From the NCBI GenBank assembly GCA_025455065.1, contig JALONG010000002.1, forward strand, positions 422 through 64,421: a DNA stretch of 64,000 nucleotides, in the 5' to 3' direction. Below the pieces are notes generated by a model. That model worked only from the letters and a program-made list of their open reading frames with translations. It had not been told where the DNA came from and made no database searches. Shown in pieces: positions 14,923-54,111 of this stretch. The stretch is from Candidatus Kapaibacterium sp. GTDB lineage: Bacteria; Bacteroidota; Ignavibacteria; Kapaibacteriales; UBA4661. The position numbers and the translations under genes are program-made. Numbering within the stretch: the first letter of the stretch is position 1; each line of letters begins with the position of its first letter.

Positions 14923-14949
14923 TCGGAATCTTTTACCACCAAACAATTC

Positions 14950-17097: not shown

Positions 17098-17199
17098 AAG
17101 AACAAAAAATATATCCGATTGGAGGCGCTTAGATGAGGTACAAATGGAGATGCTGTCATACATGAAATCACAATTTTTTATTTTATTTCCACTGCGCAG

Positions 17200-21624: not shown

Positions 21625-21749
21625 TCTTGGGAATTTGAGTATAGAAGAAAACAGAGCAATGCGAATATAGGAAAAAACTTGCACAATACAAGGAATCATG
21701 CCATATTGAGGCGTTGCCGAAATGTTTCTGTTACTCTGATTTTTTTACC

Positions 21750-28346: not shown

Positions 28347-28427
28347 AGAAACTTTTTCACCACACAACCGTAGATGACAACGGACGCTGATAATCTCTTG
28401 TTGTTCACCCATTGTTCCGTGTCGTGT

Positions 28428-31400
28428 ATGCAACGTTTTGTTCACGCTGTGCGGCTTTTTCCGCAGATAGTACGCTTATTCCGTTGCGCTTCAATCGGCA
28501 TTGATGCGCACGTGGGGTTGTTGCCGTTGATACTCGTTTTGCTGCCGTTGTATTGTGTTGTTGCCGCTCCCGAAACGCCTGTATTTCCTAAACGCGACCT
28601 CAAATTTGACCATTACAATCTTGCTGAAGGATTATCGCAAAGCAGCGTATTTGCTGTTCTCCAAGACCGCTACGGCTTTTTGTGGATAGGCACACAAGAC
28701 GGTCTGAACCGTTACGACGGCTATCGTTTCACGCATTATCGTCATAATCCCGACAATCCCCACTCACTCGCGTCAAATTTTATCAGTGCGCTCTACGAAG
28801 ACCGTTCGGGAACATTATGGGTGGGGACGCAAGAAGGCGGTCTCCATGTTTTTGACCGCACAACCGAAGGTTTTACGCGGTATCGCACAAATCCTGCCGA
28901 GCCCTTCAGCACAAAATTTATTGGAAGCAATTTTATCCGCGGCATCACCGAAGATGCGTCAGGAACGCTCTGGTTGGCTACGCTTGGTGCTGTCAGTACG
29001 TTCAACAAAAATACAGGAGAATGGCGGCATATCACGTCGAATACAAAGAATCCCGATGACGCAAAAAGCCTCAGTTCGCCGGCAACGTGCGGTATTCTGC
29101 GGGATAACGAGGGAATGATGTGGATAGCGACTTTGGGAGGCGGTCTCAACCGCATTAACCCGCAAACCGGCATTGTTACTCGCATCAATGACCATTCGGT
29201 GGGCTTTCGTATTTCCGGGCGCAATGTAACGGCGCTTTATCAAGACAATACAGGAAATATCTGGGTTGGAACGGACAACGGTGTGGATATTTTGCGGCTT
29301 CGTGAACAGAAATCTGAATATCTGCCATTGAACGAAACGATGAAAACAGGCGGTGTAGAAAGACCTGTCAGAGCATTTCAACAAGAGAGTGATTCCGTGA
29401 TGTGGATTGGCGTGGAATTTGGCGGTTTGACGGTGCTGAATATGCGCACGGGTAAGCAATCAAGCTACCGTCACGAACAAACCCGACTCTCAAGCCTCAG
29501 CAACGATTTTCTTTGGTGCATTTACCGCGACAAACAAGGTGCGTTCTGGGTTGGCACGCAAGGCGGCGGTGTGAATGTCTTCAATCCATTTGCAAGGAAA
29601 TTTACGTCCTTCAGGCAGGAAATCAATAATCCTTTCAGTCTGAACAATAATTTTGTTCGCGCAATGTCCGAAGACGGCAAAGGCACTCTTTGGGTTGGAA
29701 CCGAAGGTGGCGGTTTGAGCCGATATGACCGCCTCACGCAGCGCTTCACTGCTTATACCTTTGATAAAAAAGCGCGAAGTGGCATCAGCCATAATATCGT
29801 TCGTGCGATTGTCTATGACGCAAAGCGTGATGCACTCTGGGTAGGCACAGGCGGCGGATTGAACAAACTCGACCTGAAAAGCGGCGTGTTTACGGTCTTT
29901 CGCGCTGATAAGAACAATCCCCACGCAATTTCGGATGATGCCGTGCGGACGCTCTTGCTTGACGATGACGGTACACTGTGGGTAGGAACGGACAACGGTG
30001 GTGTGAATCATTTGAATCCCGAAACAAAGCGTTTTCGTGCGTATCAACATAACCCCAATGACGCTGCAAGCCTGAGTTTTAATGCCGTACTGTCTTTGCA
30101 CAAAGACCGCTTGGGAACGCTTTGGGTGGGAACGCTCAGGGGATTGAACAAACTGAACGCCGCAAATGGCACATTTACGGTCTTTGCTGCTGATAATACC
30201 AAAGCAACTATGCTGCAAAGTGGAAACATTCGTGCTATTCATGAAGACCGTAAAGGGCGATTCTGGATTGCAACGTGGGGCGGCGGGCTGCACCAATTCG
30301 ACCGCCAAAGCGGACATTTTGAGGTGTTCCGAGAAAAAGACGGGTTGCCGAATGATGCGGTGTACGGGATTTTGGAAGACAAATCGGGACATCTTTGGCT
30401 GACCACAAATAATGGACTTGCTCGCTTTAATCCTGACGAGCGCTCATTTCGCACCTATACCGTGGAAGACGGTTTGCAAAGTAACGAATTTAACGGAGGG
30501 GCGTATTTTCAAGGTGCTTCGGGTAGAATGTATGTCGGAGGTGTAAACGGACTAAGTGAATTTTGCCCCGAAACGATTACCGACAATGATGTGCCGCCTG
30601 CGGTTGTAATAACGGGCTTCAAAAAGTTCAATAAGCCCGTACAGTTGTGGAAAGACCTTAATGCCGAGCCGGAAATTACGTTGCCGCATGACGATAATTT
30701 TTTCTCAATCGAATTTGCCGCGCTGAGTTTTGCCAACGCAAAGAAAAATCGGTATCTCTACAAAATGGACGGCTTCGATAGGCAATGGATTGATGCCGGA
30801 ACAAGCAAGGAAGCGGCATACACGAACTTAGACCCGGGAAGCTATGTTTTTCGCGTTAAAGCCTGCAACAACGACGGTGTGTGGAATGAGGAAGGCGCAC
30901 GGCTGAGAATCAGCATTCTGCCGCCTTGGTGGATGTCGCTGTGGTTTCGAGCGGGAATAGTGCTGGGGTTTGTCGGAACAGGAGGGGCGTGGTTTTGGAT
31001 GCGCCTGCGTAATGAGCGGCGTCGCAGAGCAGAGTTAGAGCGCTTGGTGCATATTCGCACCGAGCAGTTGGAAACAAGCAACCATGAGCTTTCGCAGGCA
31101 AACGAAGAAATTCAGACCCATATCCAAACCCTCAGCGAACAGGCATGGGAAATTGCCACGATGAATACGCAATTACAATCGCGCAACCAAGAATTAGAGC
31201 GTTTGAACACGGAAAAAAATGAATTTTTGGGCATTGCTGCACATGATTTGAAAAACCCGCTTTCGAGTATTGTGCTGATGACAGAAATGCTCCAAATGCA
31301 GCATAAAACCTTAGCGTCAGAACAAGTACAGGAAAAACTCGGGCGGATTGAATCAACGGCTATGCGGATGCGGGATATCATCACCAATTTGCTGGATGTT

Positions 31401-32024
31401 AATGCCCTAGAATCCGGCGCACTCACGCTTTATCCGGCTGAGTTTGATGCCAAAGACCTTGTGCGGGATGTTGTTGAAGAATACCAAGAACGTGCAACAG
31501 AAAAAAATATCACGCTGCACCTCGACATTGCCGACGCGCCCGAACATGGGATATATGCGGACTATGCAAAAACGCACGAAGTTTTGGAAAATCTTGTTTC
31601 CAATGCCGTAAAATACTCGCCGACGGGGAAGAAGGTCAATGTGCGTGTGGTCGTTGGTCATTCGTCAGACGATAATGTCAGAAACACCAATACTGAAGCG
31701 GCACACAGGACTAATGACCAACGGCTAATGACCAATGACCAATCAACCAATGACCAATTCACCAAGCCCCAAGCAACCAACAATTACCTTCGTATTGAAG
31801 TCGCTGATGAAGGTCCGGGAATTTCGGATGAGGATATGAAGCGGCTTTTTGGTAAATTCGCCCGTCTGACTGCACAGCCGACAGGAGGCGAAGATTCTAC
31901 GGGCTTGGGACTGAGTATTGTGAAAAAAATCGTAGAAGCAATGAACGGCAGGGTTTGGTGTGAATCTGTTCTTGGAGCAGGAGCCACGTTTATTGTCGAG
32001 TTGCCTCGGAGCGGCGCAGAATAG
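28428..32024 (+). CDS. Sensor histidine kinase, type A core: beta-propeller, Y_Y_Y, TM, HisKA, HATPase_c, with a long TNDQ-rich insertion. ORF track start at 28374.
   Basis: Many Reg_prop repeats, Y_Y_Y (RYLYKMDGFDRQW), EFLGIAAHDLKNPL and GGEDSTGLGLSIVKKIVEAMNGRVWCESVLGAGATFIVELP. Insertion NTNTEAAHRTNDQRLMTNDQSTNDQFTKPQATNN. Confidence 0.85.
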   Translation: MQRFVHAVRLFPQIVRLFRCASIGIDAHVGLLPLILVLLPLYCVVAAPETPVFPKRDLKFDHYNLAEGLSQSSVFAVLQDRYGFLWIGTQDGLNRYDGYRFTHYRHNPDNPHSLASNFISALYEDRSGTLWVGTQEGGLHVFDRTTEGFTRYRTNPAEPFSTKFIGSNFIRGITEDASGTLWLATLGAVSTFNKNTGEWRHITSNTKNPDDAKSLSSPATCGILRDNEGMMWIATLGGGLNRINPQTGIVTRINDHSVGFRISGRNVTALYQDNTGNIWVGTDNGVDILRLREQKSEYLPLNETMKTGGVERPVRAFQQESDSVMWIGVEFGGLTVLNMRTGKQSSYRHEQTRLSSLSNDFLWCIYRDKQGAFWVGTQGGGVNVFNPFARKFTSFRQEINNPFSLNNNFVRAMSEDGKGTLWVGTEGGGLSRYDRLTQRFTAYTFDKKARSGISHNIVRAIVYDAKRDALWVGTGGGLNKLDLKSGVFTVFRADKNNPHAISDDAVRTLLLDDDGTLWVGTDNGGVNHLNPETKRFRAYQHNPNDAASLSFNAVLSLHKDRLGTLWVGTLRGLNKLNAANGTFTVFAADNTKATMLQSGNIRAIHEDRKGRFWIATWGGGLHQFDRQSGHFEVFREKDGLPNDAVYGILEDKSGHLWLTTNNGLARFNPDERSFRTYTVEDGLQSNEFNGGAYFQGASGRMYVGGVNGLSEFCPETITDNDVPPAVVITGFKKFNKPVQLWKDLNAEPEITLPHDDNFFSIEFAALSFANAKKNRYLYKMDGFDRQWIDAGTSKEAAYTNLDPGSYVFRVKACNNDGVWNEEGARLRISILPPWWMSLWFRAGIVLGFVGTGGAWFWMRLRNERRRRAELERLVHIRTEQLETSNHELSQANEEIQTHIQTLSEQAWEIATMNTQLQSRNQELERLNTEKNEFLGIAAHDLKNPLSSIVLMTEMLQMQHKTLASEQVQEKLGRIESTAMRMRDIITNLLDVNALESGALTLYPAEFDAKDLVRDVVEEYQERATEKNITLHLDIADAPEHGIYADYAKTHEVLENLVSNAVKYSPTGKKVNVRVVVGHSSDDNVRNTNTEAAHRTNDQRLMTNDQSTNDQFTKPQATNNYLRIEVADEGPGISDEDMKRLFGKFARLTAQPTGGEDSTGLGLSIVKKIVEAMNGRVWCESVLGAGATFIVELPRSGAE
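31690..31795 (+). repeat. In-frame GACCAAT heptamer-like repeat tract (about 9 units with 7/8-nt period) encoding a TNDQ-rich insertion in the HATPase domain.
   Basis: GACTAATGACCAACGGCTAATGACCAATGACCAATCAACCAATGACCAATTCACCAAGCCCCAAGCAACCAAC. Single-base deviations avoid in-frame TGA codons. Confidence 0.55.
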
Positions 32025-32147
32025 CTGATTTTTTGTCAAGAGGGAAGTCGCAAACTTTTCTTGCATTTTCATCAATGCCCCGTTATTGTGAACTACATCC
32101 GCGCTATTATTCCCGTTTTGATAGTTCGTCATTTCACTGCATCCTTG

Positions 32148-34230
32148 ATGCTGTGCGGGTTTCTCGTTTTTGGTGCTGCGGGACAAGCAACGGTGCTGTT
32201 TGCAGAGGCAAAAACATTTGAGGCAAAAATTGCCGAAGCGCGAAAACAAGGGAATGATACGCTCTTGGTGCTTGCCTTGGCGGATTGCGCCTATTCTCAT
32301 TATCTTTCCAATCCCAAGCAAGGAATTGCCGAAGCGGATGAAGCCATAGCATTGGCGGAGCGGGTGAAATTCCCGCGTGGTGCTGCAAAGGCATTTGTCT
32401 ATAAAGGTTGGTGCCATTATGTTCTTGCGGAATATGCAGAAGCAATTCGTGCATACTTGCAAGCGGAAACTCTTGCGGAGCAAAATGGCGATTCGTCTAG
32501 TCTAGGGCTTGCATTGCAGTACAAGGCGAATCTTTACCGTCGTGTGTATAAAGACGTAGAGCGCTCTTTCCAAGATCATGCTAAAGCCGCACGATTACTG
32601 GAAGGAAAAGTTGATAGCGCAGACATGATGCTGTTATGGCAAGATTTGGGTATTGATGAAGGAGCGCGGCTGCACACAAGCGAGAGTGTGCGCTATCTTG
32701 AGCAAACAGTGAGGTATTTCTTCGAGAAACGGGATACGGTGAATTGGCTTGTTAGCTATGCCTATATCGGAGAAGCGTACTTGCTTGCGGAGGAATATGA
32801 GCAAGCGAGACCATATTTTGAGGAAGTGCTGCGTATTGCCGAAAAAACGAACTCCTTCCGTGCCAAAGCCATGACACAGAGCCGTTTAGCGAGGATTTAC
32901 CTTTCGGAACGCCGATACTCGGAAGCGGCAATTTCCGCAAAGGAGGCTGTGGAAGCGTCGCAACTCGCAGGGTCGAAAGATTTTTTGGTGGACAGTTACG
33001 GCGCGTTAGCTGAGGCACTACGGGCTTTGCAGCGTTTTGAAGAGGCTTCCGATTACCAAGTTTTGCTCACAAATTTGCAAGATTCACTCTTTGCCGATAA
33101 AATGCGGAACTCGCTGACGGTGCAGCAAGCAAACTACGAAGCAGAAAAAGCACAAAGCAAAATTCAAGACTTGGAATTACAACAACAGGCTCAACGGCGC
33201 ATCGGATATGCTTTGGCTATTGTCGTTATTGTTGTTGTCTTGGCAGCACTTCGCATTTGGCGCTCTGCACGAGCCGAACATCGTGCATTGGTGCAGGTGG
33301 AAGAAAAAAATCGGAATATTTCGCAGCAACGCGAAGAATTGGAGCAGTTAAACGCACAACTGCTCACCGCAAACGAGGAAATCCAGCGCCAACTCACCAT
33401 TCAAGCCGAACAATCGCAGCAGTTGGAACTATCGCAAACGGAGATTCAAGCGGTCAGCGATGATTTGCAGGAAGCAAACCTCGAATTGAGGGCTTCCAAT
33501 GAACTACTCGCGCTGGAACGAGAGGCTTTGGAGCGCGTGAATACGGAGTTAGCGCTGAAAAATACGGCACTGTCGGAAGCAGAAGAGTTTCGGTTGAATA
33601 TGCTCAGTATCGTTTCGCATGACCTCAAAAACCCGATAAATTCTATCTCCGGCTTAGTCAGTGTTTTGCTGGATAATCCTGAGTTGGGAGAACGTGAACG
33701 TGAGATATTGCGCTATGTTCACGAATCAGGGGAACGAATGAGCGCACTTGTGCGGGATTTACTGGATACTGCTGCCAGAAGTGCCGGAAAAATCACGCTA
33801 CAATTAGCCCCGACGGAATTAAAGGACATCACCGCCGGAGTGCTTGCGCATCATATTCATTCGGCGGCGCGGAAAAAACAGCAGTTTATTTTTAATCCAC
33901 ATGAGGAAATTTGGGTAACAGGAGATGTGCGTCGTTTGTTTCAAGTGTTCGACAATTTGGTCAGTAATGCTCTCAAATACTCGCCATATGGCAGTTCGAT
34001 TTGGATTGGCATAGGACGAAAAGATTCTTCAGCGCTTTGGAGCGTCCGCGATGAAGGAGCGGGTTTCACGGAAGAAGACAAAACAAAGGCTTTCGGCTTT
34101 TTTCAAAAACTTTCTGCCGAGCCTACGGGCAGATTGTGGAACTGCACGGGGGAACAATTCGCATCGAAAGCGAGGCGGGGCAAGGTGCAACGATGATTGT
34201 CGAAATGCCGTTATTGCTGCCTTCGTAAGA
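32148..34230 (+). CDS. TPR-repeat sensor histidine kinase, type C core, with a frameshifting deletion in the G2-box region near 34135; possible pseudogene. The ORF track ends at 34196 in the wrong frame, and the conserved C-terminus QIVELHGGTIRIESEAGQGATMIVEMP continues in another frame to 34230.
   Basis: TPR-like repeats, TM segment (IGYALAIVVIVVVLAAL), coiled coil, H-box LNMLSIVSHDLKNPI, NALKYSP and FFQKLSAEPTG. The reading frame then shifts exactly where the GxGLGL box should be. Confidence 0.7.
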
Positions 34231-34356
34231 TATAAGACCAAATCTCAACGGAAATTTTTTTTCTTGTCCTTCTGATGGATGCAATGTAGATTGTTCTCCG
34301 CAAATTATTCTGAGCAGTTATCCTTGCTTCTTTTCTTGGTTATCACCTTCGGTCGC

Positions 34357-36616
34357 ATGGCGCATCGTTCCTTGATACATAATTTTCCTCGTTTGTTGCT
34401 GACAAGCGCCTGTTTGCTGTGGTTATGTGCCAATCTTTCTGCGCAATCCGCCAACCCGAAAAACCCCGGTACTCAAGGCTTTGAGCAGTCATCAAATCCT
34501 GTTGTAGAGCAGGTTTCAGAGAACATTCCACATTACACTGTTGAAACTGATGAGGCGGTGCAGTTATTTTTTCCATCGCTGTTGAAGGATGTGGCTCGCT
34601 CTGCAAGGATTGACGCGATTCTTGAGCAAGAAAGCCTTTTTCGTCTTAGTACCGCAATGTCGCTTTCTGCTACGCCGAATGCGGTTTGGCTGGTCTTTGA
34701 TGTGCAAAACAAAAGCGGGAAGCCGCTTGCTCTCTGGTTTGACGATACGGGATTAGACACATTACAAACGTTTTGTGTGGTGCGCGATGCTGCGGGAAAG
34801 AAGACCATTGTTTTGCACGAATATGCAGGATTAACCTTTGCTTCACACCCGATTGCGGGATTGCCTCTCAATATGCTCTACGCAACAGGAGCAGACACCC
34901 TCCCCAAGCGAGTTTTTGTGCGGCTTGCGAGCCGAGAACCCATGGCGATTTCGGTGTATAGCGGCTCCGATGATGCGCTTCGTCGCTATTACGAAGGGCG
35001 CTTTCTTTTAAATGCCGTTATTGTTGGTCTGATACTTGCACTGATAGCCTACAACGTGCTTTTGAGCCTTATGCTGCGGAGTGTCACGTATATGCTTTAT
35101 GTTGTTTACGGGCTTTCGGCATTGTTGTATATCCTTTATGCAACAGGGTTAATCGTCCCTTTTTGTGGAAAGGCTGTAACGGAATTTGTTCTCGGAAAAT
35201 CCTTTCAAATCGGCTTGTTGGTAATGTTTTTTACCGTAGCTTTTGCGACAAGATTCCTGCACGTTGCAGAGCGCCTCCCCGCATGGTTACTACCCGGTCG
35301 TGCTGTTTTGGTGATAATTGTCCTTAGCGGTTTTGTGCGGTCAATAGTACCGATGACGGAAACTGCCTACACGGTGATTATTGCTGTTGTTGCAACAATA
35401 ACATCAGTATTTTGTATCAGTATGAGCATCGTTGCAGGGCTTCGCGGCAACAAAGCGGCGTGGCTCTATTTACTGGCGTGGATATTACTTTTGACGATGT
35501 TTGTGATTTTGATTCCGGCAATAGAAGGGTATATTCCTTTGACTCCTTTGTTGTTGCTATTGCCGCAAGTCGGCTTCACTGTCGAACTCCTGCTCATGTC
35601 GTTTGCTCTTGCTTATCGGATTCGTATTCTCCAGCAGGAGCGGCAATCGGCATTGCTGGAAAATGAGCGCCTTGTGCAAGAGCAGAACCGTATTTTGGAG
35701 CAGAAAGTCCATGAGCGAACAATGGCGCTGGAGGACGCAAATTTACAGCTTGCTGCGGCAAATGAGGAAATTCAGCGACAGTTGGAAGTACAAACCGAGC
35801 AGGCTCATCATATCGAACTTTCCAATACCGAACTCCAAGAAACATCGGACAATCTTGCGCTCGTCAATCACGAACTTCTCGAATTAAATGAGCAATTATC
35901 GGGGCAGAAGGAAGAATTACAAGCCAAGAACCAAGCATTAGCGGACGCGGAACAGTTCCGCCTGAATATGCTCAGTATCGTTTCGCATGATTTGAAAAAT
36001 CCGATTAGCGCAATAACAGGCTTGGCGAGTGTGCTTCTGGATAATCAAGGGTTTGACGAGCGTACCAAAGAAATGCTCTATTACATTGCTGATTCGGGTG
36101 AGCGTATGAGCGCACTTGTCCGGGATTTGCTGGACACTGCCGCGAGAAGCTCGACACACATTGCCCTCGTGCTTGCACCAACGGAATTGAAAGACATCAC
36201 CGCCGGAGTCCTTGCGCATCATATTCACGCTTCGGAGCGCAAACGGCAGCGCTTGATTTTTACTTCGCATGAAGAAGTTTGGGTAAACGGTGATGTCAAG
36301 CGCCTCTTCCAAGTATTTGACAATTTGGTAAGCAACGCCGTGAAATACTCCCCTGAGGGCGGCACAATTTGGGTGAGTGTTAGCAAAATACTCACCCAAA
36401 CCGAGAAGAAAGCGCTTTGGAGCGTCCGCGATGAAGGAGCGGGTTTCACGGAAGAAGACAAAACAAAGGCTTTCGGCTTTTTTCAAAAACTTTCTGCCGA
36501 GCCTACGGGTTGCGCGGCAGATTGTGGATCTGCATGGGGGAACAATTCGCATCGAAAGCAAGGCGGGGCAAGGTGCTACGATGATTGTCGAATTGCCGTT
36601 GTTGCAAGATTGGTAG
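34357..36616 (+). CDS. 7TMR-DISM sensor histidine kinase, type C core, with a frameshift in the G2-box region near 36500; possible pseudogene. The true C-terminal frame corresponds to track ORF 36377..36616.
   Basis: Signal peptide, extracellular domain, 7 TM helices, coiled coil, LNMLSIVSHDLKNPI, NAVKYSPEGG and FFQKLSAEPTG. The conserved VARQIVDLHGGTIRIESKAGQGATMIVELP is then found in the +1 frame. Confidence 0.7.
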
Positions 36617-36808
36617 AATGTTGTTCTCTGTTATCAGAATATTCTCTCGCTAGGCAGTGCTAGGGGAATTGTTAGATGAAGAACGCATAAAACCTCACTG
36701 AAAGCACGGTGCTTGCTATATCGCAAGAAATTACTATTTTTGCGAAGCAGTATAATACCTCAAATGTGCTGTTTCTTGCGCAGTATGTGTTACAAACATT
36801 TTTGCACT

Positions 36809-37258
36809 ATGCGAAAACTTAAAATACATTGTTTGGCGTTGCAATTGGCTTTATTGCTTACGTTTGCAGCAGGTGGGAGGGTGGTAGCTTCACATCGGTT
36901 GCCTGCAATGGAACCCTCACCGTTTTGCCATTCTGTTGCCCAGGAAGCACAGCGAATACTCGTTTCAACAACGTTTCCCACTGAAATTACGAGCATCTGT
37001 TTCGCTCACACCGAAACACTGTCGCTTATTCACCCTCTTCGTTCCGCCATTGATATTGTTGAAACCACTGAACCGGAACAGGAAGATGATGATGAACATT
37101 CTGCCTTGAGTCGTGGTAGTGTAACCTTGTTCAACAACGACTGCGCAAAAAGTGATGCTCGTGCCGCAAACGCATCCTTCGGTGTTCTCTCTCCTGTCCC
37201 GCTTTATATCCTGCATCATAGCTGGAAACACTTCGTGCTGCCTCTTCCCCGCGCATAG
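36809..37258 (+). CDS. Hypothetical small secreted protein with an acidic stretch.
   Basis: ORF with an N-terminal signal-like segment (MRKLKIHCLALQLALLLTFAAGG). No recognisable family, and I do not see clear coding-bias evidence. Confidence 0.3.
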   Translation: MRKLKIHCLALQLALLLTFAAGGRVVASHRLPAMEPSPFCHSVAQEAQRILVSTTFPTEITSICFAHTETLSLIHPLRSAIDIVETTEPEQEDDDEHSALSRGSVTLFNNDCAKSDARAANASFGVLSPVPLYILHHSWKHFVLPLPRA

Positions 37259-37260
37259 GT

Positions 37261-37490
37261 TGTTCGTGCGCCATTCCTCCTTATCTCTACGTTAAATTTT
37301 TTATCGAAAGACGTGTAACGTTCCTGTTATGCGGCTTTTGCGGTATTTTCTTTCGTGAAATTTTATCACCAATCCGCGAGCCTGTCTGAAACTAGCACGA
37401 ATCCTTGAGTTTATCCTCAATAAACGTGATCGTTTCTAATTGCAATCACTGTTTTCATTCGTGAAGATTCGTGCAATTCGTGGACATAAT
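37261..37490 (+). promoter_or_regulatory. Cluster of TTCGTG/CACGAA motifs upstream of dabA, including three direct ATTCGTG repeats at helical-turn spacing (37457..37485). Candidate regulator binding sites.
   Basis: cATTCGTGaagATTCGTGcaATTCGTGgac lies 20 bp upstream of the dabA start codon. Further copies are at about 37264, 37354, 37398 (inverted) and 37424. Confidence 0.35.
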
Positions 37491-37507
37491 CATCGGAGAC
37501 AACAACG

Positions 37508-40078
37508 ATGACGACCAAACCTATTCAAAAATATCTTTTTATCGAAGATCACGTTCTTCACAAACTCCGACATTATCTGCCTTCGCAAGCGCCGTTGAAG
37601 GATTTTATTCATCACAATACGCTCCATGCTTTTCAACACCATTCTTTTCACAAGGCTTTACGCTTAGCTTCAGAGGTGTTCGGTTACAAGGTCTATTTGC
37701 CGCTCAAGGACTTCCGCGCACGGTTTCATTCTGGGCAGATTCGGGAAGATGTCCTGGAAGCTGTATTGCTGAAAGCCAAAGGCGCATTGTCACTGCCATT
37801 ATGGAAAATGCGTCTCTTGGAAAAAAACTACGACGCTACACTAAACGCCCGTATTGGTGAAGTACGCAAGCATTGGAAAGATTACGGTATTCATCTTGAC
37901 AAACTCGTGCATCCGCTTCTTTTCCGTATTCTGAGCGGGTATCTTGACCAAGGCATTGCGCTTTGGCGGATGCCTGTTCCGGCAAAAGGATTGCTGAAAG
38001 CACTCCGCGAAATGGAGCGGTTAAGCAGTTTTGGCGGTATTTTTACTACGCACCGCGCAAAGCGTCTTTTGCAAGATGAACACTGTTCTATGAAAAAATT
38101 GCTGCATATCGTCGTTGGTGATGAGGCACTGTTTGAACAGTATGTGTTTGACCAGCAATTTTCGCATCCGGGCTGGTCGGGCATGGTGGCGTTTTTGGAA
38201 GAGCATCCGCACGCACTTTTGGACGAGAAGCATATTGCGCTGCACGACCTCATTATGCTCGAATTGCTGCTCGAAATTGAAATGCTCGACCGTGCTTTCG
38301 GCGAGATTTGGTCGCCCCTCGGGTTGAAGTTAGAAGAGCATCCCACTCCACTGTTTCACGAAACAGAGTCCTCCGAACTTGAGCAAGTATGCGCTCTTTG
38401 GCAGGAAGCGTTTGAGTGGAGTTATTACGACCAAGTGCTGGCGGGGATTCAAGGCGCGAAAACAATGGCGTTCGCGGGAAATATTCCCAATGAGTCTGCA
38501 CAAAAGCCAGCAACGCTCAGTTTCCAAGCGATGTTCTGTATTGACGACCGCGAATGTTCCTTGCGGCGATATGTGGAGACGATTGAGCCGGAAAGCCGTA
38601 CCTACGGCACTCCGGGCTTCTTTAATGTGGAGTTTTATTTTCAGCCCGAGCACGGCAAATTTTACACAAAATCCTGTCCCGCACCGCTTTCGCCGAACTA
38701 TCTCATCAAAGAGATTGATACAACGCGCAAACACCAACGCGACGCGCATTTCACCAAACATACACACTCGCTTTTTCGTGGTTGGTTTATCACGCAAACG
38801 CTGGGTTTGTGGTCGGCGCTAAAACTTGCGGAAAGCGTTTTTAAGCCTACACTGAATCCCGCATCAACACACTCGTTTCGGCATACCGACAAACGCGCTA
38901 CACTCACTATTGAGCGCACGGACGATACGGCAGACGAAAACGGTTTGCACATTGGGTTTACCGTTGCCGAAATGGCAGATAGAATCGAGGGTTTGCTCAA
39001 AAGTACGGGGCTGACGCATGATTTTGCGACGCTTGTCTATCTCATCGGACACGGGGCGAGCAGCTCCAATAACACGCACTATGCAGGTTACGACTGCGGT
39101 GCGTGTTCCGGTCGCCCCGGGTCAGTGAATGCGCGTGTGGCGGCGTTTATGGCGAATCACACCTCTGTTCGTGCGGTATTGCAAGAGCGCGGTATTGTTA
39201 TCCCTGACACCACGCGCTTTCTGGGGGCATTACACGATACAACACGCGATGAAATCGAATTTTTCGATGACGCAAACCTTACCGAAAGCCAACAACAGCG
39301 CCACAAGCACAACACTCAGGTTTTTGCTCAAGCCCTCGACCTCAACGCAAAAGAGCGTTCGCGGCGTTTTGTGCTGACGAACTCCGCACAATCACCGGAG
39401 CGGATTCACAACGAGATGAAACTTCGCTCGGTATCGCTGTTTGAGCCGCGCCCCGAACTCAATCATGCTACGAACACACTTTGCATCGTGGGGCGGCGTG
39501 AAATGACGGAGCATCTTTTTTTAGACCGCAGAGCGTTTATGAACTCCTACGATTGTACCTTAGACCCTGATGGAATCTACCTTTTTAACATCTTGAAGGC
39601 AGCTGCGCCTGTCTGCGGCGGCATCAATTTGGAGTATTATTTTTCTCGCGTGGATAACTACCGTCTGGGCGCGGGAACAAAACTACCGCACAATGTGATT
39701 GGCTTAATTGGTGTTGCCAACGGTATAGATGGGGACTTACGTCCGGGCTTGCCAAGTCAGATGATTGAAATACACGACCCGACGCGGCTTTTGATGATTG
39801 TACAGCATTATCCCGACGTGGTTTTGCGCACAATTCAGAAAACGCCTGAACTGTACGAATGGTTCGCTCACGAGTGGATTCATTTGGTTGCGGTGCATCC
39901 TGAAACGGGGGAGTTGCTGCGTCTTGAAAAAGGGAAGTTTATACCCTACAAGCCGCTTCAAAAAACTCTTCCAATGACTGATAACCCCATGACACTGCTT
40001 GAATCGCACAAGGAAAATCTGCCCGTGATGGTTCTGACAAACAAACAGGAACCTCCAGTAATCGAAGAGGAGGCGTGA
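37508..40078 (+). CDS. dabA: DabA-type DUF2309 (YbcC) protein, the putative catalytic subunit of a DAB inorganic-carbon accumulation complex.
   Basis: 856 aa, soluble. Beta-carbonic-anhydrase-like CxDxR motif (FCIDDRE) and an H-x15-C pair (GHGASSSNNTHYAGYDC) spaced as the reported Zn ligands of DabA. The stop overlaps/abuts the next gene. Confidence 0.75.
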   Translation: MTTKPIQKYLFIEDHVLHKLRHYLPSQAPLKDFIHHNTLHAFQHHSFHKALRLASEVFGYKVYLPLKDFRARFHSGQIREDVLEAVLLKAKGALSLPLWKMRLLEKNYDATLNARIGEVRKHWKDYGIHLDKLVHPLLFRILSGYLDQGIALWRMPVPAKGLLKALREMERLSSFGGIFTTHRAKRLLQDEHCSMKKLLHIVVGDEALFEQYVFDQQFSHPGWSGMVAFLEEHPHALLDEKHIALHDLIMLELLLEIEMLDRAFGEIWSPLGLKLEEHPTPLFHETESSELEQVCALWQEAFEWSYYDQVLAGIQGAKTMAFAGNIPNESAQKPATLSFQAMFCIDDRECSLRRYVETIEPESRTYGTPGFFNVEFYFQPEHGKFYTKSCPAPLSPNYLIKEIDTTRKHQRDAHFTKHTHSLFRGWFITQTLGLWSALKLAESVFKPTLNPASTHSFRHTDKRATLTIERTDDTADENGLHIGFTVAEMADRIEGLLKSTGLTHDFATLVYLIGHGASSSNNTHYAGYDCGACSGRPGSVNARVAAFMANHTSVRAVLQERGIVIPDTTRFLGALHDTTRDEIEFFDDANLTESQQQRHKHNTQVFAQALDLNAKERSRRFVLTNSAQSPERIHNEMKLRSVSLFEPRPELNHATNTLCIVGRREMTEHLFLDRRAFMNSYDCTLDPDGIYLFNILKAAAPVCGGINLEYYFSRVDNYRLGAGTKLPHNVIGLIGVANGIDGDLRPGLPSQMIEIHDPTRLLMIVQHYPDVVLRTIQKTPELYEWFAHEWIHLVAVHPETGELLRLEKGKFIPYKPLQKTLPMTDNPMTLLESHKENLPVMVLTNKQEPPVIEEEA

Positions 40079-40079
40079 T

Positions 40080-41951
40080 ATGGATTGGATTATCAATAGT
40101 TTTTTATTCGTTCCCTTTGCCGGATTTGTCATCAGTTTGCTCATTCCTCAGACACAGGAAAAAATCTTGTCTCGTGTGGCTTTTCTCACATCGGGTACGA
40201 ATTTGCTGGGCTTTCTTGTCTTTGGCGTTCTGTGGCTTTGGAATGGCGTGCCGGTGCTGAATGTGAAGGATATTGTGCTGTATCGTACCGACGGTTATGA
40301 GTTTTTGGTGGATGTGTATTGCGATGCTGTAACGGCAGTGTATATGCTGGTTGGCTCGTTTTTGGCGCTCATTATTACGATGTACAGCCGGACGTATTTG
40401 CACAGAGAACAAGGTTACAAGCGCTTTTTCAACACAATTCTGCTGTTCTATTTCGGCTATACACTCACGATTTTTTCCGGCAATTTCGAGACCTTGTTCA
40501 TTGGTTGGGAAATACTGGGCTTATCGTCATTTTTGCTGATTGCGTTTTACCGCGACCGCTATTTGCCTGCGCGGAATGCAGTGAAAGTGTTTTCGGTCTA
40601 TCGTATTGGTGATGTGGGCATATTGTTGGCGATGTGGGCTTCGCATCATCTTTGGCATGAAAACATTACGTTTTTGAAGTTGAATAATTACGTGCTTGTC
40701 CACGAGCATTTGCAAAGCCACAGCGCTGTTGGGGCGTTTATTTCGTTGATGATTGTAGTAGCGGCTGCAGCAAAATCGGCGCAATTACCGTTTTCATCAT
40801 GGCTGCCCCGCGCAATGGAAGGTCCTACGCCGTCCTCAGCGATTTTTTACGGCTCGCTCTCGGTGCATATCGGCGTGTTTTTGCTGCTTCGCACGTACCC
40901 GTTTTGGGAATACCAATCTTCCGTGCGAGTGTTAATAGGTCTTCTGGGGCTTTCGACGGCGGTTGTCGCTTCGATGATAGCGCGAGTGCAATCGTCGGTG
41001 AAAAGCCAAATCGGGTATGCTTCGATTGCGCAAATTGGTATCATTTTTATCGAAATAGCGCTTGGATTCAAGGTTTTAGCACTTGTGCATTTTGCGTCGA
41101 ATGCGTTTTTGCGGACGTATCAACTCTTGGTTTCGCCGTCGGTGGTGAGCTATCTCATTCGTGAGCAGTTTTACCATTTCGTGCCGCATGAACACACGGT
41201 GGAAGACCGCTTGCCAAGGCGCTTGGAATATGGTTTTTATATGCTTTCGCTCAAAGAATGGAACTTGGATACAATGATGAGCCAGAGGCTTTTTGGCACG
41301 TTCAAGCGAGTAGGGCATACGCTGGATTTTCTCACCATGAAAAATGTGCTGCTTTGGGCGCTACCGCTCTACCTGATAGCATTGGTGCTGCTTTTTCGGC
41401 AGCCCGTTCTTCCACCGTACATTATTCCGTATCTGCCTGTTGTCTTTTCGATGATTGGTCTCAGCATGATTTTGAAGGCTTTTTCGGAGAAGGCTTCACC
41501 GCTTCTTTGCTGGCTTTTGATAATCATGTATCATTCGTGGATAGCGTTGGCGGTGGCATTTAACGAGCAGTTCGGCGCACGTGATGTGGTGATGTATTTG
41601 AGCGGTATCGCGATTATGGGTACTGTCGGCTACATAGGGCTTCGGCGCTTGCAGAAAGAGGAGAGAGAGCATTTTGCACTTGACCGATATTTCGGACACA
41701 GTTACGAGCATCCGCGCTTTGCAATGGTAGTATTGCTGGCGTGTTTGGGCGTGATGGGCTTTCCTATAACTCCAACCTTCATCGGCGAAGACTTGGTTTT
41801 TAGCCACATCCGTGAAGAGCAGTTTTTGCTGGCGTTTTTTAATGCGGTAGGTTTTGTGGTCGGCGGGATTGCGGTTATTCGTCTGTATGCCCGATTGTTC
41901 CTTGGTGCGCACGTGAAAACGTATCACGAAGTGCCGTATAAATCGGCGTGA
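40080..41951 (+). CDS. dabB: DabB-type membrane subunit (NuoL/MnhA-like proton-pumping antiporter fold, PF00361).
   Basis: 623-aa polytopic membrane protein with complex I subunit L-like motifs (LFIGWEILGLSSFLLIAFY, SWLPRAMEGPTPSSAIFYGSL), immediately downstream of dabA. Confidence 0.75.
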   Translation: MDWIINSFLFVPFAGFVISLLIPQTQEKILSRVAFLTSGTNLLGFLVFGVLWLWNGVPVLNVKDIVLYRTDGYEFLVDVYCDAVTAVYMLVGSFLALIITMYSRTYLHREQGYKRFFNTILLFYFGYTLTIFSGNFETLFIGWEILGLSSFLLIAFYRDRYLPARNAVKVFSVYRIGDVGILLAMWASHHLWHENITFLKLNNYVLVHEHLQSHSAVGAFISLMIVVAAAAKSAQLPFSSWLPRAMEGPTPSSAIFYGSLSVHIGVFLLLRTYPFWEYQSSVRVLIGLLGLSTAVVASMIARVQSSVKSQIGYASIAQIGIIFIEIALGFKVLALVHFASNAFLRTYQLLVSPSVVSYLIREQFYHFVPHEHTVEDRLPRRLEYGFYMLSLKEWNLDTMMSQRLFGTFKRVGHTLDFLTMKNVLLWALPLYLIALVLLFRQPVLPPYIIPYLPVVFSMIGLSMILKAFSEKASPLLCWLLIIMYHSWIALAVAFNEQFGARDVVMYLSGIAIMGTVGYIGLRRLQKEEREHFALDRYFGHSYEHPRFAMVVLLACLGVMGFPITPTFIGEDLVFSHIREEQFLLAFFNAVGFVVGGIAVIRLYARLFLGAHVKTYHEVPYKSA

Positions 41952-42010
41952 GGCATTATCATTGTTCCCCAATTTTTTACCAACGAATCTCAAACTTTTT
42001 TCAAAAAACT

Positions 42011-43666
42011 ATGAATACAACATCAAATAACGCCTCACAAACCGCACCGTTATCAGGTTTACGCGGACTTGCTCAATCGTGGCAGTCGGATATGCTTGCC
42101 GGCTTTTTAGTCTTTCTTATTGCGCTTCCCTTGTGCCTTGGAATATCAATGGCAAGCGGTTTTCCGCCTGTTGCGGGGATTTTTACGGCAATTATCGGCG
42201 GCATTGTCGTAAGTTTTTTCGGTGGTTCCAATTTAACAATTAAAGGACCGGCTGCAGGCTTGATTGTTATTGCGCTCGGCGCTGTGGAAGAACTCGGCAA
42301 AGGCGACCCGCTTGTGGGCTACAAACTAGCTTTGGCGGCGATTGTTGCGGCAGGTGTGCTGCAAATTCTTTTTGGCGTACTGAAATCGGGCGTGCTGGGA
42401 GATTTTTTTCCGTCGGCGGCTGTTCATGGAATGCTTGCGGCGATAGGAATTATTATCGCTTCCAAGCAAATTCACACTTTAGTCGGTGTGAAGCCCATAG
42501 GGAAAGAGCCGTTGCACCTTCTCGCCGAAATCCCACACAGTTTTTCGGTGATGAATCCCGAAATAGCCATTATCGGGGCGGTGAGCCTTCTGATTCTTTT
42601 CGGAATGCCGCTTATCAACAACAAGTACGTGAAGATGATTCCTGCGCCGCTTGTCGTGATTTTGGTAGCGATTCCACTCGGATTTTATTTCGATTTGGCG
42701 CATGAACACAAGTATTTGTTCTTGCCGCAGCACGAATACACGATCGGTCCGAAGTTCCTTGTAACGCTGCCGGAAAGCCTCTTTGCGGCAATTACATTTC
42801 CCGATTTTTCGCAAGTTTTTTCACCTGTTTCCATCAAGTACATCATCATGTTTGCGTTGGTGGGAAGTTTGGAATCACTGTTGAGTTCTAAGGCGATTGA
42901 CACGCTCGACCCGTATCACCGGAAATCGAATTTGAACCGTGATTTGCTGGGTGTAGGCGTTGGAAACACGCTTGCAGGTTTGATTGGTGGGCTACCGATG
43001 ATTTCCGAGATTGTGCGCTCGTCGGCGAATATCAATAACGGCGGAAAAACGTGGTGGTCTAATGTGTTTCACGGAGCATTTTTACTGGTGTTTGTGGCAC
43101 TCTTTCCCGGATTAATTCATCAAATTCCCTTGTCGGCATTAGCCGCAATGCTGATTGCAACAGGTTTCCGTTTGGCTGCACCGAAAGAATTTTACAAGAC
43201 CTTCAAAATCGGCGTAGAGCAGTTGGTGATTTTTTTGATAACGATTGCCGTAACGTTGGCAAGCGATTTGCTGATTGGCATTGCGATGGGGATTTTGACG
43301 AAATTTATCATCCACTTTGCCAATGGACTGCCACCGAAGTCAGCATTTAAGCCACTTTTTAGCGTGAATACGCCGTGTGACGACGAGTTTGTCGTGGATG
43401 TATTCCATTCTGCGGTGTTCTCGAATTACATCAAACTCAAAAAGTCGCTTGACAGCTTGCCTCGTGGGAAGAACATCACGATTGATTTCTCGAATACGGC
43501 GCTTGTGGATCATACCGTGATGGAGAATCTGTACCATTATCAGCATGATTATCGGCAGAATGGCGGTGAATTCACGATTCGCGGGTTGGAAAATCATCAA
43601 CCACTTTCCAATCACCCGCTTGCGTCGCGGAAGGCAGTTGTGTACTCGAAGCCGACATTGGTGTAA
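42011..43666 (+). CDS. SulP-family anion transporter with a C-terminal STAS domain (BicA-like bicarbonate/sulfate permease).
   Basis: About 11 TM helices with SulP signature regions, and a C-terminal STAS-like segment (ITIDFSNTALVDHTVMENL). ORF track start at 41948. Confidence 0.8.
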   Translation: MNTTSNNASQTAPLSGLRGLAQSWQSDMLAGFLVFLIALPLCLGISMASGFPPVAGIFTAIIGGIVVSFFGGSNLTIKGPAAGLIVIALGAVEELGKGDPLVGYKLALAAIVAAGVLQILFGVLKSGVLGDFFPSAAVHGMLAAIGIIIASKQIHTLVGVKPIGKEPLHLLAEIPHSFSVMNPEIAIIGAVSLLILFGMPLINNKYVKMIPAPLVVILVAIPLGFYFDLAHEHKYLFLPQHEYTIGPKFLVTLPESLFAAITFPDFSQVFSPVSIKYIIMFALVGSLESLLSSKAIDTLDPYHRKSNLNRDLLGVGVGNTLAGLIGGLPMISEIVRSSANINNGGKTWWSNVFHGAFLLVFVALFPGLIHQIPLSALAAMLIATGFRLAAPKEFYKTFKIGVEQLVIFLITIAVTLASDLLIGIAMGILTKFIIHFANGLPPKSAFKPLFSVNTPCDDEFVVDVFHSAVFSNYIKLKKSLDSLPRGKNITIDFSNTALVDHTVMENLYHYQHDYRQNGGEFTIRGLENHQPLSNHPLASRKAVVYSKPTLV

Positions 43667-43759: not shown

Positions 43760-44758
43760 CTATTCACGCGGCTTCCAGCCGTATGTGCAATACTCGCGGT
43801 CAAATGTGCCGTCGTTATACAAATTCACCATTGCGTATCCCGGTTCGCACTCTTGCCACGCACCTTTCCACCACGCGCCACTTACTGCGCCGTTGCAAAA
43901 GTACGTTACACCCGTGTAATCAAGCCTGTCCACCAAATGCGTATGTCCCGAAAGGCAGACTTTTACATTAGGATACTTGCGGAAAAGCTGCTGAATTTGT
44001 AAACCGTCGGAGTGCATGAGGTTGCGCTGAATCGTCCAATCGCTGTTCTGGTCTGGTTTGCGGAGGAAAAATGCCGATGTCATGCTTAAAATTGGAATAT
44101 GCGAAAGAACGAGAATGGGCGTTGTCGGCTTGATGGTTGCTAATTCACCGCGAAGCCATTCGTATTGTTCGCTATCCAATCGTGCCTCGTACCCCGCATT
44201 GCCGCGAGATTGTGTACTGTCCAGTACGATAAAATGCCAACCGGCTTGTGCAAAAGAGTAATACCTGTGCGGTAATCCAAGCACTTCCACAGCCCATTTT
44301 TTGCCGTAACGCTGCTCATTTCCCTTTGCGCCGCTTTTGTCCTGAAGCCATCCCCAAACATCGTGATTGCCGATGCAGTGCTTAATAGGTGTTTTGTTTT
44401 CGCGTTTCAGTGTCTCAAAAAACATATCCCATTGGAGTTGTGTTCTCGCCTCGTTCTGCTCCAAAGCATCCATAATCGAATCACCGCCATTGAGCAACAA
44501 GTCGGGTTTATCCGTTTGTGCGTGAATGTGTCGGAGGCAAGCCGTCATGCCCTCTGCCGCGCCGCGTTCCGGCTGCACGTGAACGTCGGTGAAATGGGCA
44601 ATTCGCAACACCCGCTTGCGGTCGGGGTTTGAGGGAATTGTGGTCTGTTCTGATGTTTCGGTATTGGTCAGGAACTGCTCTGCGCTGAGGAAAGAAGCAG
44701 ATGCCAGAGCAGTTTGTTGTAGGAAATTACGACGGGAAGCGTTAGATGAAGTGTGCAT
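43760..44758 (-). CDS. Tat-exported calcineurin-like metallophosphoesterase.
   Basis: Twin-arginine signal (RRNFLQQTALASASFLSA) and phosphoesterase motifs (HFTDVH, GGDSIMD, GNHD, GHTH). Confidence 0.8.
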   Translation of the reverse strand: MHTSSNASRRNFLQQTALASASFLSAEQFLTNTETSEQTTIPSNPDRKRVLRIAHFTDVHVQPERGAAEGMTACLRHIHAQTDKPDLLLNGGDSIMDALEQNEARTQLQWDMFFETLKRENKTPIKHCIGNHDVWGWLQDKSGAKGNEQRYGKKWAVEVLGLPHRYYSFAQAGWHFIVLDSTQSRGNAGYEARLDSEQYEWLRGELATIKPTTPILVLSHIPILSMTSAFFLRKPDQNSDWTIQRNLMHSDGLQIQQLFRKYPNVKVCLSGHTHLVDRLDYTGVTYFCNGAVSGAWWKGAWQECEPGYAMVNLYNDGTFDREYCTYGWKPRE

Positions 44759-50109: not shown

Positions 50110-50488
50110 TGGTTGTGAAGAAAAAATGTTGAACAAGTATCTATTTTTTTCTCACTACGCACAAGAGGTAAATTTTGTTTCAAAAAATACGAAAACCACC
50201 ATTTTCCCTCCGCTCTATATATAGCTCTGAAACAAGTATTAACGAGGCTTCTTCAGCAGATGTAAAAAATACTCCCATAATTAGTTTCAGCAAAATAATG
50301 AGCAAAAATGCTTTCGGTCGATTTTAATGTACGACTTTGCGAGAGAATTTACAGTATTGCGTCCTAAGCGCATGGATATTATCGTGGAAAGCAGAAAAAC
50401 ACTCGCTCCTAAGCAAAAAAGTTGTAGATTGTTGCTCTATTCCCGTCGTAAATCTCTACTTGTTTTACGCTTATTTTTCCTACGAAAA

Positions 50489-53400: not shown

Positions 53401-53605
53401 AGGACCCGGTATTTCTTCGGGCGATATGCAGAAACTTTTCAGTAAGTTCTCTCGCCTTTCTGCTCAACCCACAGGAGGTGAACACAGCACCGGTCTGGGG
53501 TTGAACATTGCCAAAAAAATTGTTGAAGCGATGAAAGGCAAGATTTGGTGTGAGTCTGTGCTTGGAGAAGGAGCAACGTTTATCGTTGAACTTCCGAAAG
53601 CCTAG
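50489..53605 (+). CDS. TPR plus tandem PAS sensor histidine kinase, type A core. ORF track start at 50327.
   Basis: Signal/TM, TPR-like repeats, TM segment, two PAS-like segments (VIITDAEGRVQFVNEQFEQRTGY...; second around 52380..52700), EILGIVAHDLKSPL and GGEHSTGLGLNIAKKIVEAMKGKIWCESVLGEGATFIVELP. Confidence 0.85.
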   Translation: MTLASRVGAVGMLVLSLLVFGTESLHAQFLPRDSLLKELAVRRAASAVRDSDYVRLLFLVARSYRPNTVQMRPFVDEARQLVEILHSPRLRALLHLNIGNILRLERRFTEARDTLNLAFQGFSEQRDSSNMSSTAGLIAVLYQQRDMFSMALQYYMQEMEIADKCGDDKNSFLARVNLSEISIAMQQPEKALYFVRQAKPILARIGSDAFRVEWAKSMAAAYRMTQKPDSALLVAQEGVKGSWKLNDTLLVVNLLAQEVRSLRAMQRFDEALVRLDSLVSLDVGLSAEGVLRPTMCALAAEVMSAAALDSVFLSKTSAVRKTHLLEQALSFAKRGVSHPKASKKDMLDLYVVLAKVYNAQGRTNEAFLAQSSLLTLRDSVFTASLHASIADMQERYALAQKEAEIALLQAQERRATMLNLLLTTLTLCGLFVAGVSYHRYRSQERSERALQEANERLQGLYKEALAYKTRIEDQNMVLMAHERKLLESLQHKQFLSIVAGSTSQMVIITDAEGRVQFVNEQFEQRTGYTASEMIGIKPGKVLQGKNTNPETTREIAQALRERRAFEGEIVNYTKEGREYWVHLSITPVFNDNGECEHFLAMQYDVTDQLRKQAEERIQAELTLQSMMASTREIVMLVGADFQMMQFNKTAYKAMREMMPEIEPAIGMDMRRYSPVPLEEVEKDFEEVMKGKSVAFDLDMPNPSNPTETLTFEVNYNPVRNLQGEIIAVSFVARNITKRRQAQAQIEQMNLWLEKRVQERTKEIEMRALQLSATNNKLATAYADLEMAQLELWSKNQELENVNVQLQEANYEKSEILGIVAHDLKSPLSGIQGLAEVLRAGIDTEYAQQAAIEIYNASERMFRLITNLLDVNAIETGKMPINLGPLDVGFIIETIVENYTLRALAKVITINVVLPTSRVYALADEFALPQVVENLVSNAVKYSPFEKQVWVRVKETINTQKQAVVRVEVQDQGPGISSGDMQKLFSKFSRLSAQPTGGEHSTGLGLNIAKKIVEAMKGKIWCESVLGEGATFIVELPKA

Positions 53606-53650
53606 CTTGGCTTCACCGTGATATAATTTTCAATATTCCCTACAAACCCC

Positions 53651-54103
53651 ATGAATCCTGTTGTTGAACTTTTCCGCTCGTATATCGGTGTGGAAACGCT
53701 TGATGAGCGCGTACCAGTGGTAGTGCGCTGGCTGAATTTGCAGATTGTCGAAGCAAATGTTGGTCATATTAAACTCTCTGCCCGTGTACGCCCCGATATG
53801 TGCAACCCCGCACAGGTACTGCACGGCGGACTGCAATGTACGATTATGGACGAGGCTTTTGGTATGGCAGTCGGAACACTGGGCGTGGATAATTTTCACG
53901 TCAATACGAATCTGCACGTTGATTTCTTGCGCCCTGCGCCGCTTCATGCTGTTGTTATTGCAGAAGCACGTGTCGTGCGTGCGGGAAAGCAGATAAAAAA
54001 TGTCGAATGTGAATTACGTTTGGAAGACGGTTCTATCGTTGCTCGTGGCACATCAAATCTTTTCCGTACGGGAATTAATCCCTTAAAAGCGCATACGGGA
54101 TAA
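53651..54103 (+). CDS. PaaI-family hotdog-fold thioesterase.
   Basis: 150 aa with HGGLQCTIMDEAFGMAV, the TIGR00369/PaaI-type motif. Confidence 0.75.
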   Translation: MNPVVELFRSYIGVETLDERVPVVVRWLNLQIVEANVGHIKLSARVRPDMCNPAQVLHGGLQCTIMDEAFGMAVGTLGVDNFHVNTNLHVDFLRPAPLHAVVIAEARVVRAGKQIKNVECELRLEDGSIVARGTSNLFRTGINPLKAHTG

Positions 54104-54111
54104 TTGTCGTA

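Follow-up and report, generated by a model that had tools for sequence, protein, structure and literature searches.

Among prokaryotic machines for capturing CO2, the DAB and MpsAB systems are the most widespread; besides acting as virulence factors, they are candidates for engineered carbon-concentrating mechanisms. Pairs of both kinds rescue carbonic anhydrase (CA)-deficient Escherichia coli and accumulate inorganic carbon. The DAB coupling mechanism is being derived from two structures, whose proteobacterial and Aquificota types are closely related. The closest described systems are DAB2 of H. neapolitanus (DabA2/DabB2, PDB 9rd0; Desmarais 2019; Lo et al. 2026), DAB1 of Thermocrinis albus and H. 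neapolitanus (DabA/DabB/DabC; Phillips et al. 2026), in which a beta-CA-like DabA likewise sits on a NuoL-like DabB, and the MpsAB pair of Staphylococcus aureus with its Bacillus subtilis counterpart NdhF-YbcC (MpsB). Here we analyzed a related locus on a 64,000-nucleotide stretch of DNA from Candidatus Kapaibacterium sp. (GenBank assembly GCA_025455065.1, contig JALONG010000002.1, positions 422 to 64,421 of the forward strand), hereafter called the window. A first-pass annotation, made from the letters alone, had proposed that a DabA/DabB-type pump adjoins a SulP transporter there. We find that this DabAB-SulP locus is genuine and a probable operon for inorganic-carbon uptake in a Kapabacteria genome, belonging to the already known DAB family. 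With a probability of about 70%, a small ORF (open reading frame), dabA, dabB, and sulP make up a single transcription unit providing cytoplasmic bicarbonate; we infer their co-transcription. The four ORFs lie on the same strand and span 36.8 to 43.7 kb, with the following features:

36735-36742, + strand: TATTTTTG, matching the Bacteroidota-type -7 motif TAnnTTTG, 64 nt 5' of the small ORF; a weak hint.
36806-37258, + strand: small membrane-protein gene, 149 amino acids (aa); public gene call P0456, "hypothetical protein."
37259-37507, + strand: intergenic region and 5' leader of dabA, with a TTCGTG cluster; possible regulator-binding site.
37508-40078, + strand: dabA, 856 aa, Pfam PF10070; cytoplasmic beta-CA-like subunit.
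40080-41951, + strand: dabB, 623 aa, Proton_antipo_N and Proton_antipo_M; NuoL-like membrane subunit, predicted to conduct cations.
42011-43666, + strand: sulP, 551 aa, Sulfate_transp; SLC26/SulP anion transporter with a weak STAS-like C terminus.

The dabA stop and the dabB start, read as abutting in the first-pass annotation, are adjacent but separated by one base (TGAtATG). The sulP ORF is listed from a GTG at 41948; alignments of its orthologues begin at the ATG at 42011, 59 nt past the dabB stop. Downstream of sulP, a metallophosphoesterase gene (43760 to 44758) lies on the opposite strand, so sulP is the last gene of the unit. In public records, the identical DabA is a "DUF2309 domain-containing protein" and DabB a "hypothetical protein." The order dabA-dabB is the reverse of both DAB2 (dabB-dabA) and MpsAB (mpsA, then mpsB). 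Further differences from DAB2 are the absence of a LysR neighbor and the attached SulP and small leader ORF, neither of which is reported for MpsAB.

For comparison, we drew 80 related loci (54 to 67% identity) from the genomes of GTDB species, making 81 with the window. The gene pair recurs in these 80 other genomes, mostly as the full triplet; its association is not a product of chance. They come from Kapaibacteria/Ignavibacteria metagenome-assembled genomes (MAGs), Cytophagales, Flavobacteriales, Saprospiraceae, and Chitinophagales. The adjacency of dabB was judged on the 75 loci that were long enough and the linkage of sulP on the 68 with enough flank, counting as orthologues those sulP genes with at least 45% identity. 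A HMMER scan of 1.84 billion representatives yielded 3,604 family members, and we examined those 150 that are nearest to the DabA of the window (33 to 52% identity, 392 to 1,390 aa). Seven DabA proteins served as references for what we call type I below: H. neapolitanus DabA2 and those of six annotated plasmid-borne loci (Methylocystis, Haloarcula, Nitrobacter DAB1, Pantoea, Salinivibrio, and Phaeobacter). For DabB, the type I features come from scoring just the six plasmid-borne loci, the DabB2 values being taken from the DAB2 paper.

The DUF2309 protein is DabA, as first annotated: it covers positions 2 to 747 of the 747 of the Pfam PF10070 DabA profile (E 2e-220). No NCBIfam model matches it. 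HMMER aligned it to H. neapolitanus DabA2 (chain 9rd0_A) with an E value of 4.4e-62, at about 27% identity, and the zinc site is intact. The motif CIDDRE (residues 344 to 349), which had been singled out as the CxDxR motif of a beta-CA, aligns with C351/D353/R355, and GHGASSSNNTHYAGYDCGAC aligns with H524/C539. The latter residues had been described as an H-x15-C pair in GHGASSSNNTHYAGYDC (residues 514 to 530); the His and Cys are confirmed, but they stand 15 positions apart, with 14 residues between. The proposed check of the zinc ligands against a characterised DabA thus retains both motifs and, from this alignment, predicts C344, H515, and C530 as ligands with a D346-R348 dyad. All five residues are invariant across the 81 clade sequences and kept in about 146 of the 150 closest family representatives. 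In DAB2, mutating the Zn ligands or the Asp-Arg dyad abolishes function. Beyond the site itself, the window protein shares with DAB2 the combination of PF10070 and PF00361, H576/D581 at the positions of H585/D590, and the NNxH...DCGACxG loop. With MpsB it shares the metal motif His-x14-Cys-x2-Cys (H607/C622/C625; H515/C530/C533 in the window), a likeness drawn from published metal-motif positions and one that fits both sequence types distinguished below alike.

Among the homologues, protein P0123 of a Saprospiraceae MAG (1,390 aa) carries its DabA part at residues 549 to 1386, and its sequence suggests a natural fusion of DabA with an N-terminal membrane domain.

DabB lies directly downstream of dabA in 75 of 75 loci. 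It has a NuoL-like core, and it is here that a quite different explanation has to be weighed, namely that the membrane protein is a genuine NuoL or Mrp subunit and the DUF2309 gene an unrelated neighbor. Its best PDB sequence match was NuoL/ND5 (E 1e-38), ahead of DabB2 (E 1.8e-29), its homologues are often publicly annotated as NuoL, and it keeps the Glu of transmembrane helix 5 (TM5; E144), the Lys of TM7 (K232), and both ion pairs as in NuoL (residues of note are E144, R175, D178, K232, Y257, H337, N341, and R345). These matches are, however, confined to residues 10 to 363, the C-terminal 273 aa matching no PDB sequence; DabB scores 204 with the NCBIfam NuoL equivalog, whose cut-off is 556; Lys399/Asp400 of NuoL TM12 and Asp563 of its lateral helix have no counterpart; and no other nuo or mrp genes occur in the 64-kb window. 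In an AlphaFold2 model (pLDDT 80.6), about 350 residues can be superposed on NuoL at a root mean square deviation of about 3 A, while the C-terminal half diverges. DabB2 and T. albus DabB have been described with a like pattern of NuoL core and divergent C-terminal half. The TM7 Lys, the loss of the TM12 Lys/Asp, and the divergent C-terminal helices are held in common with DAB2, and the cytosolic helices past TM11 in the model with DAB1. Given the lack of nuo neighbors, the score under the cut-off, and the constant adjacency to dabA, DabB is not a complex I subunit, in agreement with the first-pass annotation, and we regard the explanation by a NuoL or Mrp subunit as highly improbable. The core of the cation path (E144, K232, and H337) is conserved, and Y257, H337, N341, and R345 are invariant in 76 sequences.

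DabB residues 186 to 215 (40635 to 40724) form a His-rich, clade-conserved loop between two helices, WASHHLWHENITFLKLNNYVLVHEHLQSHS, longer than its NuoL counterpart, in which H189, H190, H193, H208, H210, and H214 are each at least 90% conserved.

The product of the third large gene matched Pfam Sulfate_transp with an E value of 1e-64, and its best-scoring solved relative was BicA (6ki1_A, E 6.5e-26), with which it shares the SLC26/SulP fold. It had been taken for a SulP permease with a STAS domain in the family of BicA. Assignment to SulP held, but the STAS region remained below threshold (STAS_2 18.6 bits versus 29.2, STAS 14.4 versus 22.6), even if alignments to full-length SLC26 structures extend through it, and the protein is not a BicA equivalog (141 versus a cut-off of 880). 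It also fell under the cut-offs of the other NCBIfam models, sulP (182/380) and DauA (171/614). BicA further differs in that the window SulP has a Glu at BicA Asp258 (aligned TM8 motif). The evidence for a role in inorganic-carbon supply comes from linkage: an orthologous sulP (49 to 84% identity) adjoins dabAB in 55 of the 68 informative loci, in three arrangements and across several orders of Bacteroidota as well as Kapaibacteria. The order dabA-dabB-sulP was found in 29 loci, with gaps of 17 to 197 nt except in L078 (851 nt); sulP was upstream and divergent in 20 loci, and upstream on the same strand in 6. A linkage that outlasts three rearrangements argues for a shared function of SulP and DabAB.

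Could SulP nevertheless be a general anion transporter (for sulfate, dicarboxylate, or another ion) that is merely co-operonic and plays no part in inorganic-carbon supply? Its position under every NCBIfam cut-off, with DauA scoring slightly above BicA, would fit such a protein, as would the degenerate STAS, the 13 of 68 loci that lack sulP, and the many substrates spanned by PF00916. On the other side stand the retention of one orthologous clade through all three arrangements and the paralogous small ORFs that head both the sulP and the dabAB units in divergent loci. Moreover, the literature documents bicarbonate transporters of the SulP type as well as fusions of SulP with CA; as in these fusions, SulP is tied here to a CA-type protein, the link being to a DabAB pair instead of a fused soluble CA. 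We judge a general anion transporter to be improbable and treat SulP as a candidate bicarbonate transporter. In the literature, we found no description of a DabAB-SulP module.

Other genes accompany the pair in some loci. In several Flavobacteriales MAGs (L048, at 5297 to 7407, and L037, L049, L057, L066, L068, and L070), a divergent sulP is separated from dabA by genes for an OmpR-type response regulator and a HAMP histidine kinase; these are a candidate dedicated regulator of the module. Three loci (L012:6472-7764, L022:6643-7983, and L036:2746-4053) encode, between sulP and dabA, a protein of 430 to 446 aa that carries a signal peptide, lacks any Pfam match, and might be an outer-membrane channel. 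Directly 5' of dabA, a canonical beta-CA gene was present in a Cyclobacteriaceae MAG (L064:4763-5398; Pro_CA, E 2e-56) and in a Ferruginibacter MAG (L079:3591-4262; recognised from the translated sequence only), reminiscent of B. subtilis canC-ndhF-mpsB, where a beta-CA gene also stands beside the pair.

In the product of the fourth gene, the small ORF, a hydrophobic helix at the N terminus is accompanied by an acidic stretch (EPEQEDDDE) and the C-terminal motif PLYILHHSWKH. The protein has no Pfam or NCBIfam match, and its public homologues are all "hypothetical protein." The family shares this architecture, with an acidic consensus FEExExEE and a C-terminal P-L-Y-x-L-x-(R/K)-x-L-x-I. Codon comparison across the family revealed synonymous third-position changes and switching between TCN and AGY codons for Ser, which point to selection on the protein and thus to a coding gene; on this evidence, we rejected the alternative that the conserved C terminus is a DNA motif. 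A hidden Markov model of the family, run against six-frame ORFs of the 81 loci, gave matches in 42 of them, which lie 70 to 250 nt 5' of dabA or sulP on the same strand with the sole exception of L017, and 17 divergent loci have two paralogs, one heading each unit (dabAB and sulP). In L017, a paralog (12529 to 12882) precedes genes for an HlyD-like membrane-fusion protein (13021 to 14106) and an AcrB-like resistance-nodulation-division (RND) pump (14132 to 17377), so the family is not confined to inorganic-carbon operons.

A third small membrane-protein gene in the operon is also a feature of DAB1. The gene for the window protein lies upstream, however, and the protein has just one hydrophobic helix and is unlike DabC: the alignment of its family to Nitrobacter DabC with hhalign gave a probability of 0.1% and no similarity, and no gene for a small, multi-helix, NuoM-like DabC is present between dabB and dabA. 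We therefore rejected a role solely as a DAB-specific third subunit, given this lack of DabC likeness and the paralog at the head of an RND efflux operon. We read the small protein as an operon-leading membrane protein with a putative regulatory or accessory role, not as a proven DAB subunit.

Taken as a bicarbonate-supplying unit, the locus could work as follows. DabA, a zinc beta-CA-like protein, would dock on DabB, which would serve as conduit for a cation (H+ or Na+) moving down its gradient; this flow would drive the hydration by DabA of CO2 once it has entered the cell by diffusion, giving trapped HCO3-. SulP would carry HCO3- in parallel, serving conditions in which bicarbonate rather than CO2 is available. 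Most probably, the bicarbonate would at ambient CO2 serve bicarbonate-dependent carboxylases, as with MpsAB in S. aureus, and not an autotrophic carbon-concentrating mechanism. No Rubisco, carboxysome, or reductive tricarboxylic acid cycle genes were seen in the window or the related loci, and the host is probably a heterotroph, a context shared with MpsAB along with the likely supply of bicarbonate for growth in air. Of the carbon-concentrating locus first suggested, the functional tie of SulP to the pair is borne out by the 55 linked loci, but the autotrophic sense is not.

Several observations weigh against this reading. In DabA, an active-site His (H653), invariant in the 81 clade sequences, occupies the position of a Leu found in all seven type I references, where beta-CAs canonically have Gln or His; the DAB1 and DAB2 papers call this Leu (Leu658) strictly conserved and propose that it disfavours bicarbonate binding, although the L658Q/G/A/N variants of DAB2 stay active in vivo and the residue is reported as non-essential. 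The hydrophobic finger of DabA (about residues 420 to 447) contains no conserved acidic residue across the clade; in two multiple-sequence alignments, of uncertain register here, Q430 falls at the position of DAB2 Glu444, and E444A and E444Q inactivate DAB2. In DabB, Tyr257 replaces the essential TM8 His, whose mutation abolishes function in DabB2 (H260A) and in T. albus DabB (H229A), and TM11 reads H-N-R, not H-H-K. The roughly 250 nt between the small ORF and dabA speak against a single transcription unit, and for SulP, the scores under all cut-offs have to be counted here too. SulP proteins carry diverse substrates.

The departures at Glu444, DabB His260, the TM11 His/Lys, and Leu658 mean that the vectorial CO2 hydration of DABs, which the first-pass annotation had attributed to the pair, is something we infer and do not take as given; membership of the family itself holds. 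Some of them also lend weight to another account, in which DabAB would be a Na+-coupled bicarbonate transporter as proposed for MpsAB, with DabB carrying Na+ and possibly HCO3- and DabA acting as a metal-binding accessory subunit. Tyr257, Asn341, Arg345, and the retained Glu144 of DabB depart from the proton-coupled DAB1 and DAB2, and the finger Glu that DAB2 requires for proton transfer is absent. In addition, MpsAB rescued Na+/H+-antiporter-deficient E. coli, no CA activity was detected for MpsB, and P0123, 49% identical to the window DabA, carries the NCBI name "Na-translocating system protein MpsB." Yet the full beta-CA set (Cys, His, Cys, and Asp-Arg) is invariant and the canonical transition-state-stabilising His of beta-CAs is also present, which favors catalysis over mere binding, and the adjoining dedicated SulP would be redundant with a bicarbonate transporter. 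We consider Na+-coupled bicarbonate transport by the pair unlikely and continue to prefer hydration of CO2 by DabA, with SulP alongside.

The same positions, together with gene order and neighborhood, separate the window clade (type II) from the type I references:

DabA dyad motif: type I, FCIDVRS; type II, FCIDDRE.
DabA lid motif: type I, GFAGFFG; type II, GTPGFF(G/N).
DabA finger: type I, FVE(S/T)(A/G)G with Glu444; type II, (I/L)(S/T)QTLG with no conserved acidic residue.
DabA active-site motif: type I, DWxxxRPEWGL; type II, S(L/I)FEPRPE(L/Y)(N/G)H.
DabB TM5, position of NuoL Glu144: type I, hydrophobic; type II, Glu144 kept.
DabB TM8: type I, His; type II, Tyr257.
DabB TM11: type I, H-x3-H-x3-K; type II, H337-x3-N341-x3-R345.
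DabB length: type I, 455 to 565 aa; type II, 621 to 625 aa.
Gene order: type I, dabB then dabA; type II, dabA then dabB.
Neighbor: type I, usually a divergent LysR gene; type II, a small leader ORF and usually sulP.

Against DAB2 itself, the window reads His653 for Leu658, Q430 for Glu444, SLFEPRPELNH for DWxxxRPEWGL, and FCIDDRE for FCIDVRS in DabA, and in DabB, which is about 70 residues longer, Glu for Ile151 in TM5, Tyr257 for His260, and H-N-R for H-H-K. The DAB1 motifs GI(A/G)GFFG, NNPYESALDCGACGG, and DWxxxRPEWGL read GTPGFFN, NNTHYAGYDCGACSG, and SLFEPRPELNH in the window. The conservation statements of both DAB structure papers cover close homologues only. Among the 150 closest of the 3,604 representatives, the type II His is present wherever the site is covered (145 His and one Gln, with four gaps), so type II is a large branch and not an oddity. 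Since residues implicated in DAB1 and DAB2 coupling are replaced here, the coupling mechanism is not transferable from those systems; judging from the sequences, type II could use Na+ coupling or another proton route. We advance as a tentative proposal, more doubtful than not in our own estimate, that type II is a second, mechanistically distinct DAB-type class, widespread in Bacteroidota and Kapaibacteria and including the 150 closest of the 3,604 representatives, with the canonical beta-CA His, without the finger Glu, and with a rebuilt DabB channel, a dedicated SulP, and a small-protein-led operon. We found no earlier description of the type II signature, of the conserved linkage to SulP, or of the leader ORF family.

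The leader of dabA contains six copies of TTCGTG, five of them on the + strand, and a seventh lies in the 3' end of the small ORF (37232 to 37237). These seven copies fall within about 250 nt (37232 to 37482), where about 0.2 would be expected from the window-wide density; three stand in tandem at 37458, 37468, and 37477, with a spacing of 9 to 10 nt, just 5' of the dabA start. The closest relatives, L001 and L002, each have one AATTCGTG about 40 nt 5' of dabA. The cluster may be a regulator-binding site. With 44 occurrences in the window versus 47 expected, the TAnnTTTG motif shows no enrichment, and the + strand has none of it from the small ORF to dabA. Rfam had no match in the window or the dabA leader, no tRNAs were found, and scans for sigma-70 sites and terminators gave fewer sites than, or no more than, shuffled sequence.

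Elsewhere, the window is dominated by 15 sensor histidine kinases, mostly head to tail (149 to 18657, 24737 to 26491, 28374 to 36663, and 50327 to 60074), of Reg_prop/Y_Y_Y, TPR, 7TMR-DISM, PilJ, and PAS types. All of them lack a receiver domain, and the window ORFs scanned included no response-regulator gene. An adenylate cyclase gene (20218 to 21699, minus strand) lies among the kinase genes. The two kinases directly 5' of the operon (32061 to 34196 and 34279 to 36663) lose their frame at the same point of HATPase_c, after "...FFQKLSAEPTG" (34150 to 34200 and 36530 to 36620), and in both, the rest of the domain (IVELHGGTIRIES.AGQGATMIVE.PLL) resumes in another frame. This may reflect pseudogenisation that the paralogs share, a sequencing error recurring in a repeat, or a real frameshift.

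If the clade behaves like DAB2, the locus is simply another annotated DabAB operon. If instead type II is a distinct class, it could use another coupling route or another ion (Na+), and it could reconcile the model of an H+-driven vectorial CA, put forward for the DABs, with that of Na+/HCO3- transport, put forward for MpsAB. The type II clade offers natural variants for tests of the residues that link ion flow with CO2 hydration, and DabAB-SulP is a candidate module for the uptake of both CO2 and bicarbonate in abundant heterotrophic Bacteroidota.

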